The translations under genes were made by a program, and so were the position numbers. Of a stretch of DNA of 64,000 nt, positions 18,745 through 64,000 are shown one piece after another; the first letter of the stretch is position 1; each line of letters starts with the position of its first letter. Source of the stretch: Anolis carolinensis (taxonomy: Eukaryota); NCBI RefSeq assembly GCF_035594765.1, contig NW_026943824.1, positions 248,001-312,000 on the forward strand, read 5' to 3'. The notes under the pieces are model-generated. The model did no database searches, was not told the origin of the DNA, and saw only the letters and a list, made by a program, of their open reading frames with translations.

Positions 18745-18960
18745 GGTGGTGATGGCACGATCGTTAGCATAGGTGAAACTCCCTTCTCTTCTTCCTTTGT
18801 GATATTGTAAGTTTTTCTCAGGAGGAGGAAATGATTGACAGTCATAAGCTGTTGACAGGTCTAGGAAGACCGCTCCTATCTGACTGATAGATGGAGGTTG
18901 GAGAGGCTTCATACTGTGTCTGTAGGATGAAGTATTTGGACACACTCGCGCATTGCTCCC
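18745..18960 (-). mobile_element. Decayed Vingi/Ingi-like LINE RT fragment
   Basis: GAVFLDLSTAYD and SFTYANDRAITTQ (degenerate YADD); homologous to 33210-33413. Confidence 0.55.
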
Positions 18961-18989
18961 TGGGAAATGGAGTCCTGGCCTGCCTTCCC

Positions 18990-19210
18990 CCTTTGAATGG
19001 AAGCAGCGCGGGAACTACAATGCCCAAAAGGGGGAGGGAGAGGGCTCCGCCTCCCCCGCAAAGCACCCTGGGCCTTGGAGTCCGAGCCCTTCCCGCGCGC
19101 GGGCCTGCCTCCTGCCCCCGCCCCCCTCGAGGACTACATTTCCCGTCGGGCGCCGGGCGGCGTCCCCTAATTTCTCCCACACGGCGGAGGCATTTGCCAA
19201 GATGGCGGCC
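18990..19210 (+). promoter_or_regulatory. TMEM11 CpG-island promoter
   Basis: Two ACTACAnnTCCC-type motifs (gaactacaatgccc ~19012; gactacatttccc ~19132); YY1-type CAAGATGGCGGC overlapping the ATG. Confidence 0.6.
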
Positions 19211-19296
19211 TGGGGACGGAGGCGCGCGGGGCCCGGCAGCGGAGGCAGCGCAGGAGCCGCGCTCGGGGCGGGAGGCGCGCTCGCGGCCCGGGAGAG
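19202..19296 (+). CDS. TMEM11: TMEM11 (mitochondrial transmembrane protein 11) exon 1 of 2
   Basis: aagATGG Kozak; MAAWGRRRAGPGSGGSAGAALGAGGALAARE-R; donor gtgagc; 95 nt. Confidence 0.92.
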
Positions 19297-19384
19297 GTGA
19301 GCCCCGCCCGCACGGGCCCCAAAGGCCTCCGCCCGGGCCTCCTCGCGGCCTGCCGGCCTCGGCGGGGATGGAGGGACAAAGGGG

Positions 19385-19650
19385 ACGGGGCCTCGAGTGG
19401 GAGAGAAGGCCTCACGAGGGGGACGAGGCCTCAGATGAGGGAGGGATGCGGGGAAAGGCCTCAAATGGGGGACCAGGCCCCAGACAAGGCCTCAAGTGGA
19501 GGAGAAATGGGGGACTAGGCCTCAAATGGGGGACCAGGCCTCAGACAAGGCCTCAAATGGGAGAGAAATGGGGACTAGGCCTCAAATTGGGGACCAGGCC
19601 TTCATGCCTCCGCCCAGCCCTCCTAGGAAACTACAGGCCTCAACAGGGCT
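19385..19650 (+). repeat. Degenerate minisatellite (aggcctcaaatggg...) at start of TMEM11 intron 1
   Basis: About 10 recurrences of ggcctca. Confidence 0.7.
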
Positions 19651-22600: not shown

Positions 22601-24091
22601 ATGACTGCAGTCACTGTATTTGTGTGATAATGTGTGTGTGCATGTGCCTAATTTGCATTTGCAGTTGTGTATCTGCTGAGAGCTATCATGATTTGAGCAT
22701 TGGACTGTGATGCTGGAGACCAAGGTTCAAATCCCCACTTAGCCATGGAAACACACTGGCTGATCTTGGGCAAGACTGATGAGAGGCCTGGCCGGGGTGT
22801 CTGTGTGTTTTTGCTGCAGCACTAATGTTCACATTGTCTCTCCCCATGTCACTGATGCAAGCATTATTCCAGACGGTTGTTGAACAAACTCTGCACACAC
22901 AAAGCTTCCTTTTGTTTGTGGTGAGGGGCTCTGGAAAATGAATGTGTAGCATACACAGCTGCTCCAAAGCTTTGTTCCATCCTGTCACAAACAAAGGTGT
23001 CCTTTGGCTATTTGGTATCCCTCAGGATCTGGAAAAAGCTTTCCCCTAACATGGTGACTGTAAAATGTGCTAAGCTGATTATCAGCATTGTGTCCCAAGT
23101 CCAATGCTGGCAGAGTGCGCCCCTCATTTTTGTGGCAACAAGAGGAATTTTGAAACCCTACGTTTAAGCATTTGTTCCTAGCGATTTGTTCGACAAAAGA
23201 CCCCTCTTTTGCTCTTCAGACTTGAGACTCCTTAAACCAAAGAGACAGACTTTTCCTAGTTCTCCAGAACAGAATGTGGCCCAACTTTCATAATTTTCTC
23301 ACTTGACCATATATTAATATTTCAATTGAATGTGTGTTGATTTTTCCCTCTGGTTACAGACATGATTTTCGTTCAAAATCCTAATTCTTGGATTCTCAGT
23401 TTTTCCTTCTTCCTTACTATCTGTGTGCTTGGGAGCCATTTTCTAAACACTGGCTCATTTTTACTCACATAAAATGAACATATACAAATTCCATTCAGTA
23501 TTTATTTTTTGGTTTGACCCACAAGACGGCTTATAATTATAACTTGTCTGTTAAAATAAACAGAATAAGTTTTCAAAAGCATGGCATGTAGAGTTGGGTG
23601 GAAGGAATGCTGGAGTGCTGGAGAAAATATCTTGTCCTTCATACTGCTTTTTCTTCTATAGGTTATTTAAGCACAGATTCAAGAAAGATTCATTATGAAA
23701 ATAGGAAAGCACACTTGCAGTTGCACAGAGGGAATGCTTTGAAATAAGAAATAAAATAATAATACCAACAACAACAACAATAATTTGGCTCTAGCATCGT
23801 AGGCATGGACTTCTGTGCAAATTGGGCATCAGCTGCAGAGGTTCCTAGTCCGTACAATTAAGAAAGGGAATATATGACCACCATCTGCTGTGAAGACTTG
23901 GCATGTTGCAGCTAGGAAGAGTTATGAAAAGCAGGCATTTTCTTAAAATAGTATTGAGCAAAAAGATTGTTGTTTTAGTGCACAACTTGGGTGTATCAAA
24001 AAGGAGAGGCGAGGATCCTAAGCAGGCATAGGGCCGCGGAGGATGAGTTCCCAAAGCCTTGAGTAGTAACTCTCCCCTTTCGTCCCAACAG

Positions 24092-24608
24092 GGCCAGCCT
24101 CTCTGCCACAGACTGTTATATTGTCCATGAAATCTATAACGGGGAGAATGCTCAGGACCAGTTTGAATACGAGCTCGAGCAAGCCTTGGAGGCCCAGTAC
24201 AAATACATTGTGATTGAGCCGACGCGCATTGGCGACGAGACGGCCCGCTGGATCACGGTGGGGAACTGCCTGCACAAGACCTCGGTGCTGGCGGGCACGG
24301 CCTGCCTGTTCACCCCGCTGGCGCTCCCGGCCGACTACTCCCATTACATCTCGGTGCCGGCGGGCGTGCTGAGCATAGCCTGCTGCACCCTGTACGGGAT
24401 CTCCTGGCAGTTCGACCCCTGCTGCAAGTACCAAGTGGAGTACAACGCGTACAAACTCTCTCGCCTGCCGCTGCATACGCTCACCTCCTCCACTCCCGTG
24501 GTCCTGGTGAGGAAGGATGACCTGCACAGAAAGAGACTGCATAATACGATAGCACTGGCGGCCCTGGTGTACTGTGTAAAGAAGATTTATGAACTCTACG
24601 CAGTATGA
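24092..24608 (+). CDS. TMEM11: TMEM11 exon 2 of 2 (total 203 aa)
   Basis: aacag|G GCC AGC...: ASLSATDCYIVHEIYNGENAQDQFEYELEQALEAQYKYIVIEPTRIG...VKKIYELYAV*; 95+517=612 nt. Confidence 0.96.
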
Positions 24609-26587: not shown

Positions 26588-27348
26588 AGGGCTCATAGAT
26601 ACTTATGCAAATGGCAAACCAGGCACAAGTTGTGTGACTTCTTGCATGATGGTCACCCAACACCAATTGATGGTAGCACACACAGAGAAAACATTCTTGT
26701 TAATGTTGCCCATTTTAATTAGCAAGTCAGGATTGGCTGTAAAGCTGCCTTCCATTTCACAACTAGTCTTGCAATTACAATGTATGGCTGCTCCTTTCTC
26801 TGACCTCTAGTAGAAAATCTACCGAGCAGTAAGCCAGTCATATTCTGACGCGGTTGAACATACTGTTCACAAAGGCTTGGGATGCTGATAGCTCTCCTGT
26901 TCATGATCGCTGCATAACATGTAGAAGTGCGGTGGGCACACATGCATGACGGGAGACATTTCCAGGTAGAGATGCTGGTAGGAAAGGCAACAGAGAGCCT
27001 GCACTTTACTCCCACCCAACCCTTAAATGCAATGACATTAAGAGACATGTAAAAATATCGAGCTGTTATTTACACACTCTTCCAAAGAAAGCCCAGCATG
27101 AATGAGTGGAAACGTGTTGGAAGTGCAGCTGATGTTTTAGTTTAGCGCACAGAGCTCCCTTTGGGTTTCTTGACGTTGAGAAGAACCCCTTTTCAGGAGG
27201 ACAACGGCTAATCTTCAGATCTCATGCTGGTATCCAACGGGATACAGCTCTTCAGGGAAGAGATAAATGCGAGTGTCCATGCTTCCTGCACACGCAGCCC
27301 TGCACGCCTTCGGTCTGGCCTCTTCTGCTCACGGTCCGTGGTCTGGGG

Positions 27349-27554
27349 CTAGGAAGCCTTGGCTTTTCTCTCCTTCTGGGCCCGGGAGGCCATGATGGCG
27401 AAGAAGAGCCTGGGGCACAGCGTTCGGAGGTAGACCACCAAAGAAGGCAGAAAACCCGCCACCACCACCTCCTTCCTCTTCTCTCCCACCGCATCGAGCA
27501 CCACCTGCGCCACCTCTGCTGCCGCCTTGCCTCTGGCCGTGGCCTTGTCCATCA
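27349..27554 (-). CDS. DHRS7B: DHRS7B exon 7 of 7
   Basis: [34 protein letters not shown]...[11 protein letters not shown]; acceptor tttcag; 206 nt. Confidence 0.92.
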
Positions 27555-28006
27555 CTGAAAGAAGGAGAAACAAGGGAGCGTCTTGAACCACAGGCACGTA
27601 CGGGGACCAGAAAATGCGCCTTGCCCAGAATGGTTTACCCAGCTGGGGGATTTTAAGAGCTGCTGTCCCAAAAGGTAAATCCATGAGGCACCTCTGTCAA
27701 ATAGATGTGTGATTTATAGTTCTCTCATTCCAATCATGCCCTCCCTAAATATGCTGATTGTCTCAGAGGCAAGCCAGGAAAAAATAACCTATACACTGCA
27801 GAGTCCTTATCAGTTGTCAGCAGAGTTTTACTGCATTGCCTAAACTTGAGCATGCAAACAGATTAGAAAATTAAAACCCCAATCCTGAGCCTCTAGGCTG
27901 CCGTCTGCGAAGATAAGATGTTCACATCAGATTTGATTGCCTGGGTTAAGAGCTAGTCAGGCATACACAGTTCAGAAATATATTGCAAAGGCAGCACACT
28001 GCTCAC

Positions 28007-28159
28007 CTCCATACTGAGATCCATCTGCGGTGATGGCATTCAGCGACAGGTTGGTCTGGATGTAGCCGGGGCTCACCACGGTCACCACCACACCGTACTG
28101 CTCCACTTCTGCTCTTAAGCAGTCGAAAAAGGCCTGGAAGGCATGCTTGGAGGCTGCAT
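28007..28159 (-). CDS. DHRS7B: DHRS7B exon 6 (catalytic YxxxK)
   Basis: [39 protein letters not shown]...; 153 nt; GT-AG. Confidence 0.95.
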
Positions 28160-28496
28160 CTGGAAGACCAAAGAGGGAGAGGCTCGGTTGCTGAACTACT
28201 TGGAACTCAATCATTTCTGCAAGTTTGTAGTCCTCGTCAAGGACTTAGTTGGCAGTGAAAATATTATTTTTTTCTCTCCACTTATTGCTGGCATGGCCAC
28301 AAACCCCTGTTCTGCTCAGAATTATGGAATCCTGGAATGTCTATACTGTACTTTCAGGTCCCAATCCTGATCTCTTACCTCTGGGACAATACTGAGTTGG
28401 TGGCACTTTTCCTGAATGCTGAAACTTCCAAAGCCCATAATAGGAGGAAAGTGTCATTCCTGAATTCGTTGTGGTGCTTGCAAAGAAAGTACTTAC

Positions 28497-28589
28497 ATGC
28501 GGACCGGAATGGAAGCCCGAATTTCCCTTGAACGCTGCTGATGGCGACAACGTGGCCTTTCCTCCTCCTGATCATGGAAGGCAGAAGAG
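28497..28589 (-). CDS. DHRS7B: DHRS7B exon 5
   Basis: [30 protein letters not shown]; 93 nt; GT-AG. Confidence 0.93.
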
Positions 28590-28737
28590 CTAGAGAGAGG
28601 ATGAGAACGGTGCCATGAGAAGCGGCCCTTGGTTGCATCCAAGGAGATGCACGTTGGACGCCCGGCCACTGTGGGAATTGAATTCCCAAACACCTGGAGC
28701 AGGGCCAAAGCTGGCCCATGCCTGCACTAAACCTTAC

Positions 28738-28948
28738 CTTTGGTCAAGGCAATGGGGCCAAAGTAGTTGGTCTCCATCACTTTCCTGTCGACCTCTATCA
28801 CCGTCTCCGCGATGGAGCCTCGGTAACTGATCCCAGCGTTGTTGATCAAGATGTCCACGTGATCCACACACTTCAGGATCTCCTCCGCGGCACTCACTAC
28901 CGCCTTGATGTCCGAGAGGTCAAAGACCACCGTGTGATGCTGATGAGG
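28738..28948 (-). CDS. DHRS7B: DHRS7B exon 4
   Basis: [13 protein letters not shown]...[14 protein letters not shown]...[13 protein letters not shown]; SDR NNAG motif; 211 nt. Confidence 0.92.
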
Positions 28949-29225
28949 CTGGTAAAGGGAGAGGGATGGGAGTCAATCACACCGGAAGCTGCACTGCCGC
29001 AGAATTGGCCTGGAAGCATTACGCTGTGTCTGTTTTTGTTCCCTGTTATGTATTTTATTGGGCAGTTCGGAGGCGCGAACAAGGCAAGGATGGAAATTTG
29101 CCATTCCATGTGTTCCTAATAACCAGATCATACCAATCTTCAAATTGCAAAACGGACCTCCGAAGCTGCACAGTCCTAATAAATAGTGTTTGCAGTTAAA
29201 CTGCCCGAGGATGAAGTTGACTTAC

Positions 29226-29341
29226 GTTCTTTGTGGGGTCGGCGGTGGCAGAGAGTTCCCGGAGAAGGTCCCGAAGCCTCTCCCCATTCCGGCCACACAG
29301 TACCAGTTTCGAGCCAGCGGCATGGAAAGTTTTGGCACACT
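29226..29341 (-). CDS. DHRS7B: DHRS7B exon 3
   Basis: [39 protein letters not shown]; 116 nt; GT-AG. Confidence 0.93.
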
Positions 29342-29454
29342 CTGAGCAAGAAGGAAAGAGCCAGGGAAGAAACAGACACAATCATAATGTAGGAAGAAAA
29401 AACACGTGACTTGCTCCTCCTGTGCTGTGACAAACGTCTCTGAGGCAGATGTAC

Positions 29455-29630
29455 CTTTCCCGAGTCCGGACGTTGCTCCCGTGATCACCACCACCGCGTC
29501 CTTGAGGTAGGCCTTCGCCCGCATTCGCCGCAGCAGCCAGAAGACGCCATAGAGGCCCAGGCTGCCAAACAGCAGCGGAAGAACGGCCGCGGAGGGGAGA
29601 CCCATGAGCCGGGCTTTGTGGCTGCTCCTC
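29455..29630 (-). CDS. DHRS7B: DHRS7B exon 2 (signal-anchor + TGxxxGxG)
   Basis: RSSHKARLMGLPSAAVLPLLFGSLGLYGVFWLLRRMRAKAYLKDAVVVITGATSGLGK; 176 nt. Confidence 0.92.
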
Positions 29631-32036
29631 CTGGATGTGTGAGAAGGAAGCAAAGCAGGAGAACGTCACACCCGGCATTTGCAAACTTCCAACCCTTGCA
29701 CTGTTTCTGCGTGTTGTTTTCCAGCTTAGCAGCATTTCCCGTTTCTGTTTTTGCCTTGGACAAGAGTCCAAGGAAGCGACTTGGGTAAGACAACTTGCCA
29801 CCAACTCTCACTGAGCACTTGGACAATGCTGCCTTGCGCCACCTCTCAAATGGATCCACCAGAGAGCCCAGAACATGGCCATACAGCCCGGAAAACACAC
29901 AGCAACCCAGTGGTTCTGGCCATGAACGCCTTCGACAACCAATATCCTAATGCAAAGACATGCATCAAAACCAGGCTTTGAAGCGGCTGAGGGGGAAAAG
30001 GAAGGGGCCTGAGGCTGTTAGGAATGGTGGGAGTTGGAGTACAAAACACCTGGAAGGAAAGTCCAAGTTTGCCCAAGGCTGCTTTAGGGAGAGAAAAAAC
30101 ATGGAAGGGGAAAATATGAAATCCTGCACCTGCGGTACATGGAGTAAATTTGCACACATTGGGTACGTTGCACAGTTTATCCTCTCGGGATAAAAACTAA
30201 CATCTTTTGCAAGCTTTATCACTTTGGGGTTAGATTTTAGGTGGGAGTAAAATGTTATCCAACGGAACGCCTCTGCAGTTCTTTCCTGGCTTTGGAAATG
30301 TCAGAAAATGTTACTCATGCACCTCAGGGTCCAGAGGCCTGTGGTTTTTCAGAGGGAGGGGAGCGAGAACATTGTGGCTTTCCAGGTGCCGAATCCGGCT
30401 CCGCCTAACGTTAACACCTGTGCTCCGTAATCACAGCCCAAGGCGAGATGACTAGGAACACGAGAGGCTGTTGCAACACGTTCTGGCCTTCCCTTCTGCA
30501 GGAACATCCGTTTCCTATGGAGACAGTCCCAGGTCCAAAAAAAGGAGTGCGAATATTACGTGGTGAAAAAGTAATCCGTCTATATGACTTCACTTGACTG
30601 GAAGCCAAGTAAGGCCCTGTAGCTTCAAGGGGTCAAGGGTGATCAGGTGAGATAAGGGGGACACTAGGCAAGGAATGGTCAGGGAGAGTTTGGAGGAGGA
30701 ACCGATAGTAGAAGGCTCAGCAGTAGAACCAGGGCCTAGCAATGAACAGCAACTCCTTCAGCCAGGTCTTGAGAGAACATCTGGAGAAGGAGCAACAACT
30801 CACCCTGCTGCTTAAGGGGGAAAAGAAGGGGCCTGAGGCCAGGAATTGTGGGAGTCGAAGTCCAAACTCCTGGAGGGACGATGTTTGCCCATGCCTGGAG
30901 TATACTCTGCCTGTAGTTGGGGGCAGTGGCCCTGGCAGGAATACTAAAACACCATTTTGATTACCTGAAAATAGGGGTGCAGCTTTATGCAAGAAAATAC
31001 AGCATTTATCTTTGCAAATACCTCCCAGCCCTGTTCTGGGGGCTACAGGTTGCTCTGTTCAAAACAACCCTGAAATATAGCAGGTCTCAGACACATCAAC
31101 CACACTTCAAGAAACAGCACACCAACCCAAATGCAACAGGCATTTGTAAACAACCAAGGCAGAGCGCACACAGCAAGTGGGGAGCCAACATTTGGAGCCA
31201 AAGAAAACTTGCTTCTTCTGCCAGCTATCTGTTAAAACCTACTCTGGAGCTCTTTCTCTTTTCGGTTCTCTAAGCAGCATTTGCATGGAATATATGGCAC
31301 AGCAAGTGCCCTCTTCACCTGGCAATGTTGCTGGACTACATCTCCCATCATTGCCTATCACTGGCTAGGCAGGCCAGGGCTAATGGGAAACCCAGATAAT
31401 AATTGAGTTCTTTGCAGAATCCTGTATTCAGGGAATGCATACCTATGCAGCACCAGGTAAATTCGCTAGTCACAACTATGAGACAAACTCCAGTTAAAGC
31501 AGAAGGCAGCTACATGCACAGAAAGGGAAGGGGGAGTGATAGACCACCTTTTCAATGGCTGGGCCCAAGTGATACAAGCCTCGGGGTCCGCACTCAGAGA
31601 AAATGCCTTACCACAGACTTCAGGAGAAAGGTTTGCCTCGGCTAACCATGGTGCCAGGTCAAGGAGCTCCATCTCATTGCTTTTAGAGGCTCAGTTCTTC
31701 TACAGGGAAAAGGTTCAATCAGCAGCATGTTAGGAGGAAATACCGGCACTGCCATTCATGCAACAAAGCCATTTCTACTCCACACTGCATCACCCCGGTG
31801 ATTGCCAATGTGTATTGTCAAGTGAACCATGCTCAGTTTTCCGTATTATAGCTTTAGGAGAGGAAAGAAAACAAGCTGCTTACGAAGGTGCGAGAAAGTT
31901 AGGATTTGATTGGTTTTGTTATCATCAATTATAGGATATATTTAGGAAAGACCATAAAATTGGGTTTGATGAAAAGATATCGGGAGTTGGAAAATATCTT
32001 GTAAGTCAGAGCACGGTCCAGAATAACTCCCAGGTA

Positions 32037-43019: not shown

Positions 43020-43140
43020 ATGAGTCCGCCGGCCGCCGGGTGCTGCCATGTGACCGGCTTCAAGGTGGAGAACTGGAAGCAGAACCTGCGCGTCATCTAC
43101 CAGTGCTTCGTCTGGAGCGGGTCCGCCGAGGCCAGGAAGA
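43020..43140 (+). CDS. USP22: USP22 (ubiquitin-specific peptidase 22, SAGA DUB) exon 1, 3' end lost in gap
   Basis: [40 protein letters not shown]... Confidence 0.92.
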
Positions 43141-58740: not shown

Positions 58741-58873
58741 GCAAAGTCGTGTATCTGTCATATGTGTGGTGCACATCTGAACAGACTCCATTCTTGCCTA
58801 TATTGTGTCTTCTTTGGCTGTTTCACAAAGAAGCACATTCACGAGCACGCAAAGGCAAAGCGACACAACTTAG
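58741..58873 (+). CDS. USP22: USP22 exon 2 (ZnF-UBP)
   Basis: ttcag|[44 protein letters not shown]|gtaagt; 133 nt. Confidence 0.96.
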
Positions 58874-61800
58874 GTAAGTAATCTCCCTTGACTCTTACAG
58901 CAACATAACTTGTTTACTAGTGCATGCTTTTACTACGTGGAAATATTTAGATCAGATGAACCCAGACAGCGTGTCTGCTCTTGTCATACAATCCAATTTG
59001 TTCTTATAATATTTTAGTCTGAAGTTACATTATAATCCTGACAATGATTAATTGAGGCTGTGGTGCTAAATCTGTAAAAATAACATGAGATGAACTAAGT
59101 AGCACAGTTTATAACTGGCTCCTTTCTAGCAGGGTTTAGACATATGTTCCCCATTTTAACATGTTGGATAGCCCATTAGAAATCATGAAAATATGGATGT
59201 ATCTAAGGATTAGAAAGATTGCCTCTTTATTTTGGCCAAAAAGTGAACATTTGATTCCTCTAGATTCTCAATTATGACAGTATATATTCAGTAATACAGT
59301 TGTTTCCTGCCTAAAACCAAATGGCCTTAGCTATTTGTTCTGTGAGGCCTCTCTCTTTGGTTAATCCTCAAATCATTTTCACCTATGGAGAGGCAAATGT
59401 GTTTTTTAGTTTACCCAGAGGGATTTCCTTACAAACCAGCATGTAAAATCTATGGTTGGTATCCCATTCTAATCCTGAGTAGAGTAGATCCATTGATAAC
59501 ATACCGAGTAAATATTGACTCTGGGTAGCTGTACTGTTTAGGAATTACTATTATTTTTCAATAGATATATCTTGAGTAGTGGTCCTCGATCTGTGAGTCC
59601 CCAGGTGTTTTGGCCTACAACTTCCAGAAATCTGAGCCAGTTTACCAGCTGTTAGGATTTCTGGGAGTTGAAGGCCAAAACATCTGGGGAGCCACAGGTT
59701 TGAGAACCACTGGGCTAGAGAATTGGACATGAAACTTCCTTGTCGATGTTTTGAGTATTTTTAAAATGGATTTTGACTGTCGTGTATTTACTTCGTTAGT
59801 TAAAAACTTTCCATCTACTGCCTCACCTTCCCAGACTTGTCTGATGCTCAGCCTGGTAGGATTCAGCAAACAGTATGTCATCTTCTCTTATTGCTGTCTA
59901 TGCAAATGTCCTAGTTTTAAAACATGATGATTATTATATAATCCCGATTCCACTTGATGTACATGTTGAAAAGGCTTAACTGTGGCCAAGAGGCATGAAT
60001 TATCTAGTCGTAAATCATAAAGTCTTAAATTTGTTGCAATAATTTTCAGAACACTGATGTTTAGGCAGCTCTTCAAAAAAGCCAAAAGCCCAAAGATCCA
60101 GTCTCCTTCACACATTGAAGGAGGTTCTTTATTGTAGGTTTTATCTTCATTTGTTGCAGACTGTATGATAAAGTCCCAAAGGGGTGAGTGCATAGCCTAC
60201 AGTGAATTGTGTTGGATGAATGTCTTTGAAGGACACTTGCCTGTCATTACTGACCTTACCCTAGGAAGAACGCTTTTGAACTTCAGAAGGAAACGTATTG
60301 TAGTTCATTTCATAGGAGTATAAAAAAATTCATTATTATATAATAAATCAGCTTCCTAATTGAATATGGCACATTTCTTTCAAATAGCTTCTGCCTCTTG
60401 TACATTTTTTAAAACGCTGTGTTGCTTATTGCTGTTACAATGAGAACATAAGTTGGAGAACCTGGATAGAGACAGGAGCCCTCCTCTTTTAAGTCTGTTA
60501 TCTCTAGTACTTAGTATCTCACCAGAATTCGGTCGGCTGGAGGACCTGCAGAAGTATACAAACACATAGCAACATGTCAGTTCTTACATTTGCAGCCCTG
60601 TAGTAGAAAAGTCATATATCTCTTGTGACTTTCATCTGTTTTGTGTGGTCTTGAGGAATGGGCCATTTGGGATGGAGAGGAGTGCCACACGAGAGCTGAA
60701 AGTCATTTCTAGAGCATTCTTCATTGAGAGACAAGGTTAACACGTTTTGTTTATAATGATTTGATACAAGCCACCCAGAGGCTCATATGATGGTGAAATG
60801 GAATATCTTTTTTTTTAATTGTATGTATATGTGTCAGTCTTATGGCTTTCCAAGATATACTTGTTAGCAGAGGATATTTGGGAACCTGGAGCTGCAACTG
60901 CTACTGTGTCCATAGGCGATGATGGCATTTGATCCCCCCGAAAAGCCTGTCTAACTAACTGCATGCACATCTTAGAATGCATAGAAATTATTTTTGAAGC
61001 AGTGACTTTCACTGAGCTAACATCGGTCTCCATGGAGACAAGGAGAAACTGAAACTCCAGACACCAAATTCTGTAGCTTTAGCAGCATCAGCTTCATGTG
61101 TGATGTGGGATGAAGTATTTGCATCTACTAGTGGCCAGAGGCTTGGGTTGCTGTGAGTTTTTCAGGCTGTATGGCCATGTTCCAGAAGCATTCTCTCCTG
61201 ATGTTTCTCCCACATTTATGACAGGCATCCTCAGAGGTTGTTTTCTCAGTAAGAGGCACACGTTTTCTGGAACTCCCTTACCTTAAGGATGCTTGGCAAG
61301 ACCTGATCTCGCCTTGGTTTTGTATCAGTTCAAAATCTTGCTTTTTAGACTGGTGCTTCTGAATTTCATGTTGATCTCCTGACAACTGCCTTATATATTC
61401 CAGTAGTTGATTAAATGTGTCTCAAGCACCTTTTACACTAATATATAAAACCCAGATTAACTGCTGTGGATTATCTGAGTCTGCACAGCCATATAATCCA
61501 GTTCAGAGCAGATAATCTGGATTGTATATGGCAGTGTAGAAGGGGCCTCAGTTAAAAGGTGGGGATTGAGCCTTAGTTGTATAGAAATTGATGGGACAAG
61601 ACACAGATTGTGTAGTGGCTGCTTTGAGTCTCCTTGTGGAGAGACAAAGCGAGGTATAAATAAACATCATCATAATCAGACAATTGGAATGGCTAAGGGG
61701 CATTTGAGCATCAGACTTACATAGCAAAGATATTTAGAGAGACCATCTCAATGGTTGTTTCCAGAAAGATTGTTCATGACTTTTCAATGCACATTGCTGG

Positions 61801-63264: not shown

Positions 63265-63378
63265 CCATAGACCTTTTGTATGGGGGTATATACTGCTTTA
63301 TGTGTCAAGATTACATATACGACAAAGATATGGAACAAATTGCCAAAGAAGAACAACGAAAAGCTTGGAAGCTACAAG
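63265..63378 (+). CDS. USP22: USP22 exon 3
   Basis: gcag|[38 protein letters not shown]|gtttgg; 114 nt. Confidence 0.96.
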
Positions 63379-63834
63379 GTTTGGTTTTCTTTAAGTTTCT
63401 GCCTGAAAGAGTGCTCACTTTAATTCGTAGATATATCTGGCCTTCCCATCCAAATGAAGATAGACTTCAGTCTGAGGGAGGCTGGCCTTTCTGACTGAGA
63501 TGAATGTAGAGAATGACTCTCTTCCAAGACTAGTTTGTTTACTATACACACATCACTAAATCACAATAGCAACAATAAAAAGTAACGTTATTGTGCAGAG
63601 CTAACCATAATAAAACAGAATAAATCTGCCCGTTTCAACCTAGTAGTTGAGACCATTCTGCCCCATATGAAAGGCAACATTTTCCCTGTGTGATTGTCTT
63701 GTAGAATATGCCATCTAAGCACATGCTATTGTTTTCACATACAGTATGTATATCTGTCGATTTTAACACACAAGTATATGTACACACATTTGTTTTATTA
63801 TTCAGTTTGCTTTCCCTAATTTTTTCTTTTTTAG

Positions 63835-63879
63835 CCTTCACCCCAACAATGGTTTCTCACTACCAGTGTACAATGACAG
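63835..63879 (+). CDS. USP22: Probable USP22 45-nt cassette exon (AFTPTMVSHYQCTMT)
   Basis: Branch point CTAAT 63816-63820, T-rich tract, TAG acceptor, CAG|gtaaga donor, symmetric phase 1, open frame. Confidence 0.7.
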
Positions 63880-64000
63880 GTAAGATGTGTGAGTTGGTGA
63901 CGCATTTCACTAACAAGCGTCCCTTTGCTGATTATCTGCCATTTTAGTCAAGAACCTTCCATTTATAATGCCACCTTACATATTGCTTTCCCTTTGTGTC

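Follow-up and report, generated by a model that had tools for sequence, protein, structure and literature searches.

Positions 63835..63879 of the Anolis carolinensis sequence analysed here are a real exon of USP22, an optional exon that we term exon 3a. Taking the evidence jointly, we consider the following account of its history probable. Exon 3a would have arisen in early tetrapods, the likely time of its gain; a single retrocopy of the exon-including mRNA, made on the placental stem, would have given rise to both USP27X and USP51; and the placental USP22 parent would then have stopped using the exon. The included form would in this way have passed to the retrogenes and the skipped form to the parent, a case of splice-form subfunctionalisation.

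The window, by which we mean the whole stretch of 64,000 nucleotides (64 kb), ends within intron 3 of lizard USP22, with exon 4 lying beyond it. The gene is identified as USP22, the histone deubiquitinase orthologous to Ubp8/Nonstop, by the peptides of exons 1 to 3a, which match the A. carolinensis RefSeq protein P0328. Coding exon 1 (43020..43139, + strand; coordinates derived from motif positions) encodes the N-terminus of P0328, matched by translation, and enters an N gap. Boundaries read by eye place exon 2 at 58741..58873 (+ strand, 133 nt), where it encodes the first part of the ZnF-UBP domain and ends in phase 1, and exon 3 at 63265..63378 (+ strand, 114 nt), where it encodes the end of that domain and the following helix, with the donor AAG/GTTTGG and a peptide contained in P0328. 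Pfam assigns zf-UBP to residues 48-108 and UCH to residues 176-517 of this protein; the catalytic exons are outside the window, and the UCH domain used for USP22 membership is the one read from P0328. Elsewhere in the window, the open reading frames at 10600-11000, 18900-19400, 24063-24608 and 27300-29700 encode peptides that we take to be those of NATD1, the start of a further gene, TMEM11 and DHRS7B, and the TMEM11-like coding sequence looks intronless.

Exon 3a (+ strand) adds 15 residues, AFTPTMVSHYQCTMT, to the linker between the ZnF-UBP and catalytic domains, where they form residues 125-139 of P0328. The first-pass annotation described a 45-nt, phase 1-1 exon with textbook splice signals, separated from the end of exon 3 at 63378 by a 456-nt intron, and every one of these elements is in place. 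The conserved upstream intron element (63786..63834, + strand) carries a CTAAT branch point at 63816, the pyrimidine tract TTTTTCTTTTTT at 63821-63832 and a TAG acceptor. On the other side, the exon ends in CAG/GTAAG, and the conserved downstream intron element (63880..63947, + strand) holds, after the GTAAG donor, the ACTAAC at 63909-63914 that the same annotation had pointed out and that may be of QKI type or of branch-point type. Canonical splice signals, a length that is a multiple of three, symmetric phase and the lack of a stop codon together give exon 3a the structure of a cassette exon. When the whole window was scanned on both strands for small exons of this kind (branch point, pyrimidine tract, YAG, an open in-frame exon of 21-90 nt and GTAAG, criteria chosen after exon 3a was known), it was the single site returned. 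At 45 nt it does not belong to the microexon class, given as 3-27 nt in PMC8187152.

Evidence of splicing comes from sequencing runs and from protein models. In X7, which we guess to be an RNA run, one contig (depth 26.5) runs from 63378 directly into 63835, with a GT..AG intron removed, thereby showing the junction by which the first-pass annotation had proposed to check the exon; an unspliced contig (depth 15.6) lies alongside it. This junction is a single contig in one of four runs, and contigs yield no inclusion level. Cover of exon 3a was absent from the other three runs (X22-X24, all of one sample). Most run contigs were attracted by high-copy repeats in intron 2 (59590-59720 and 61140-61700). 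The peptide is also present in the RefSeq protein of Anolis, so that exon 3a is already annotated. No skipped USP22 model for Anolis itself was seen among the protein rows listed; included and skipped models, mostly predicted (XP_), are both found in platypus, chicken, Mauremys, Erythrolamprus, Podarcis, Pogona, axolotl, Rhea and Rissa. Because these nine species show both forms, exon 3a appears to behave as a cassette exon.

To describe its distribution we drew sequences from three protein searches and two cluster look-ups, and assigned the named rows to clades by hand. These rows are isoforms and cluster members rather than independent species, and clustering at 90% can hide isoforms, so that all counts are among the cluster members listed, at most 15 for each cluster. 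Unnamed rows were left out, apart from P0134 and the fragment P0409, which were placed with USP27X. Also excluded were four COP9 rows that had been clustered wrongly, together with P0137, P0141 and P0311; four NCBI 'USP22-like' rows were assigned to USP27X by sequence. Exon 3a is carried by 9 of the 13 squamate rows listed, 28/36 from birds/archelosaurs, 3/5 from turtles, 7/9 from platypus, the single opossum row (1/1) and 25/29 from amphibians, which bears out the conservation in sauropsids and amphibians on which the first-pass reading depended. The one crocodilian row, a skipped X2 model, lacks it (0/1). From lizard to opossum the peptide is near-invariant, differing at 1-2 of 15 positions; amphibian versions are diverged. 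Among the amphibian rows listed, only axolotl contributes skipped forms. The named frog rows comprise 25 of 27 that include exon 3a and two without exon 3, none of them skipping it; the exon may be near-constitutive in frogs, axolotl and amniotes having both forms.

Outside tetrapods the exon was not found in the rows listed for ray-finned fish (0/73), chondrichthyans (0/13), cyclostomes (0/2) or lungfish (0/1), 0/89 combined, nor in a further 15 chondrichthyan rows (0/15). The exon had been called ancestral, a description that, on these rows, applies to tetrapods. Its origin looks like a tetrapod gain, a dating that rests on a single lungfish isoform in a sample from which coelacanth is absent. 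A scan of 13/64 parts of a metagenome collection recovered no tetrapod DNA; the one relative among 597 matching stretches was a teleost-type contig, with an intron 3 of 103 nt and no similarity to exon 3a. Two viral-contig pattern matches of 19-20 nt showed no wider similarity and were treated as chance. The exon had further been proposed to be skipped or lost in the main mammalian USP22 isoform. At the protein level this fits placental USP22, where annotated proteins give 0/41 rows listed (38 direct, 3 unrelated gene models) and 0/9 further named rows (eight direct and one lacking exon 3), several X1-X4 isoform models included, but not for platypus and opossum, which keep the exon.

Other variation in this part of the protein was also seen. 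Two rows from the frog Rhinoderma (P0431, P0436) have an extra segment after exon 3a, and two from the ray Narcine (P0062, P0064) have an unrelated long insert after exon 3. Further optional segments occur at other exon junctions in USP22 models of platypus, axolotl, elephant shark and lungfish (P0107, P0355, P0034 and P0373, respectively), making USP22 splicing appear richer outside placentals.

USP27X and USP51 are X-linked intronless retrogenes of a USP22 ancestor (Vlasschaert et al. 2017, PMC5381560). The first-pass annotation had pointed to a segment of the same length in both proteins at the place of exon 3a, and our comparison agrees. USP27X has a 15-residue segment at this position in 26 of the 27 rows listed, the remaining row being a fragment. 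It is identical to the lizard peptide at 7-9 of 15 residues, and no other of the protein's 424 windows scores as well; 2/200000 shuffles reach its score (p ~1e-5). For 13 of the 15 residues, the lizard codon needs at most one base change. USP51 is more diverged. Its spacer measures 54-57 residues in 37 of the 40 rows listed where measurable, the USP22 spacer being 57 residues in the included form versus 42 in the skipped form. The human USP51 segment matches the lizard peptide at 6/15 residues (173/50000 shuffles reach the score) and the USP27X segment at 9/15; over the USP51 rows, fixed-register identity is 0-6/15 with a median of 5/15, and there are small indels. Identity of only ~50% for USP27X and 35-40% for USP51 might be taken to mean that the segments are an independent insertion unrelated to exon 3a, but the same position, the same 15-residue length, the shuffle statistics and the short codon distances leave that explanation effectively refuted.

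The two retrogenes appear to descend from one event. In a tree calculated under LG+G4 on 17 of 30 aligned rows, with the insert columns removed, they form a clade with support of 100/99, to which long branches may add some pull, and the data reject (p-AU 2e-5) an alternative that joins USP27X, but not USP51, to placental USP22. USP27X and USP51 have 22 derived residues in common, of which eight fall within the ZnF-UBP region (residues 63-109), and they share an insertion of one residue close to the N-terminus; both retrogenes also have long N-terminal extensions. Judged on these sequence characters, a single retroposition followed by duplication is the most likely origin of the pair. Grouping of the retrogenes with placental USP22 is weak, with support of 53/85. 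Four placental-derived residues are also found in both retrogenes, and at seven placental-derived sites at least one retrogene has the old residue, a pattern that fits retrocopying partway along the placental stem. This timing rests on the four common residues and on the fact that all named retrogene matches are placental; such retrogenes have been dated after the marsupial split (PMC5381560).

Given that exon 3a is absent from the placental USP22 proteins examined and permanent in the retrogenes, the two ancestral splice forms have likely been split between genes. At the protein level, the retrogenes correspond to one isoform of the unduplicated outgroup gene and the parent to the other, a pattern that fits splice-form subfunctionalisation. 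The same history can nonetheless be told with no functional hand-over, differing from our account only in the isoform-partition step: placental USP22 would have lost the exon by drift or through an unrelated cause, and the retrogene segment would be a tolerated fossil spacer. We give this version somewhat less than an even chance. It draws on the variability of the segment in USP51 (0-6/15, with indels) and on the 6-8 of 15 sites that differ in USP27X, when the amniote exon is near-invariant. Against our own account, a Ser/Thr-Pro pair present in the tetrapod exon 3a versions seen has been lost from both retrogenes; with the Thr-Pro gone and the sequence diverged, the retrogene segment may not act as the tetrapod exon does. 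What the version without a hand-over explains poorly is that the USP27X segment has kept its exact length and is nearly constant across Afrotheria, Xenarthra and Boreoeutheria, and that an exon near-invariant from turtle to opossum is then gone in the one lineage bearing the retrogenes.

A partition would also be overstated if placental USP22 kept exon 3a as a rare or tissue-restricted event that escapes annotation. Our sample was of annotated proteins only, and the derived residues common to the retrogene segments could have arisen in the parent exon, both of which leave room for such an event. We regard it as very unlikely, given the 0/41 and 0/9 placental rows listed, isoform models among them, and given the outcome of a search of exon 3a with its downstream intron against 1.84 billion representatives. 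That search, which is weak for a diverged remnant, gave four true relatives among six matches, all of lizard or bird type; P0428 and P0429 were rejected as chance matches to repeat proteins.

How inclusion is controlled was considered from the flanking intron. In the read-through ORFs P0056 (turkey) and P0425-P0427, lizard- and bird-type genomic sequences known as translations only, the intron on either side of exon 3a is almost unchanged, over ~50 nt before it and ~60 nt after it. Conserved flanking intron is a hallmark of regulated conserved cassette exons, and exon 3a displays it. Inclusion may be regulated by tissue through this conserved sequence, with QKI on the downstream ACUAAC as the lead candidate activator. 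ACUAAY downstream of an exon is an activating position for QKI (PMC9786888, PMC8187152), and the ACTAAC at 63909-63914, one of five on the + strand of the 64 kb, is of this type. In three of the four relatives the translation is compatible with ACTAAC (Thr-Asn in P0056, P0426 and P0427); lizard-type P0425 has Ile-Asn. The QKI rule includes a UAAY half-site within 20 nt (PMC9786888), and none was seen at that distance from ACTAAC. The missing half-site, the altered motif in one relative of four and the identity of the hexamer with the branch-point consensus count against it, and from the sequence we would put QKI control of exon 3a at about an even chance.

Several further features of this intron deserve description. 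CACTAAC, in the stretch 63908-63947, lies 33 nt after the exon 3a donor and is also a branch-point consensus; a TTTTAG follows it at 34 nt, 72% of the bases between the two are pyrimidines, and the stretch appears conserved in turkey (P0056). The pair could act as a decoy, or 63948 could serve as a second acceptor, and no junction to that acceptor was seen in the runs examined. A hairpin of 8 bp is predicted at ~63893-63914 and has ACUAAC in its 3' arm; judging by the bird-type translation, its stem may contain one mismatch. The region 63790-63960 as a whole folds no better than shuffled sequence (z -0.45).

At the level of the protein, the exon 3a insert sits in the linker between the ZnF-UBP and UCH lobes. 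AlphaFold models of the protein were of low confidence both with exon 3a (mean pLDDT 45.5) and without it (41.5), and a PDB sequence search had no vertebrate USP22, USP27X or USP51 among its 35 matches, the closest being fungal Ubp8 chains. The insert would lengthen the linker, taking the spacer from 42 to 57 residues, and would add a Ser/Thr-Pro site, a putative proline-directed phosphosite on the basis of its residues. In doing so it may tune the deubiquitinase (DUB) module without deciding its assembly.

The partners of USP27X and USP51 include ATXN7L3 and ENY2 but neither ATXN7 nor SAGA (bioRxiv 10.1101/2021.05.13.444038, PMC13744548), and this raises the idea that the insert is a switch keeping ATXN7, and hence SAGA, off, such that in non-placental tetrapods the included USP22 would form the SAGA-free USP/ATXN7L3/ENY2 module that the two retrogenes provide in placentals. 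Both ATXN7-less enzymes do carry the insert, the placental SAGA enzyme is without it, and its place between the two lobes is suggestive. We nevertheless hold the idea to be unlikely, because frogs seem almost always to include exon 3a (25 of 27 named rows, with no skipped form) and would presumably still need USP22 in SAGA, and because the zinc-finger lobe of the retrogenes is much changed, any of the 22 other common derived residues or the N-terminal extensions being able to exclude ATXN7. A modulating role is more likely for the insert than ATXN7 exclusion. Improbable too is the fuller proposal that exon 3a is an ancestral, QKI-regulated switch between SAGA-bound and SAGA-free H2B deubiquitinase modules, both of which non-placental tetrapods would obtain from USP22 by splicing, and of which one retrocopy hard-wired the SAGA-free form in placentals; if true, it would explain why USP27X and USP51 leave out ATXN7. 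There is evidence against the strong forms both of QKI control and of an effect on the SAGA DUB module.

Exon 3a is annotated in databases but apparently undescribed. Annotated USP22 isoforms of Anolis (XP_003226563.1), Xenopus (NP_001090240.1), chicken, platypus and opossum already contain it; they are database models, for which we found no account of regulation or evolutionary meaning. Neither the exon nor its link to the retrogenes was found described in the literature searched (on USP22/USP27X/USP51, retrogene isoform partition and QKI, subscription papers and most supplements aside). Vlasschaert et al. 2017 (PMC5381560) likewise place the USP22-derived retrogenes after the marsupial split and describe a brain-enriched cluster with USP22; the consulted portions of that paper make no mention of the segment in the linker, of a cassette exon in tetrapods that placental USP22 lacks, or of a single shared retrocopy. 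USP22 does not appear in the main text or four supplements of Mazin 2021 (PMC8187152), whose gained-exon list (Supplementary Data 10) may tabulate this exon for chicken and opossum.

Known systems resemble parts of this history. In zebrafish cnnm2a/cnnm2b against human CNNM2 (Lambert et al. 2015, PMC4417111), as here, one paralogue corresponds to the included isoform of the outgroup gene and the other to the skipped one; unlike those cases, the duplicate of USP22 arose as a retrocopy without introns, which is a class that one analysis in that study removed, and the outgroup is the non-placental tetrapods. The isoform-archive or orphan retrogenes of Carelli et al. 2016 (PMC4772013) similarly preserve a transcript form of the parent, whereas the USP22 parent survives and one isoform alone is 'orphaned'; USP22, USP27 and USP51 are absent from the main text of that paper. 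Skipping of USP4 exon 7 (PMC4735762) is another instance of an alternatively spliced USP linker exon with a lineage-specific pattern, but it is described as retained and skipped in therians rather than lost, and it involves no retrogene.

What makes the USP22 case useful is that the species that retain both forms provide a natural control. USP27X is an X-linked intellectual-disability gene, and the lizard, chicken and platypus USP22 forms differ only by the 15 retrogene-type residues, so that they allow its effect to be measured free of the remaining retrogene substitutions. The probable history set out here would also give a clear-cut case, in vertebrates, of an isoform that persists solely as retrogenes.
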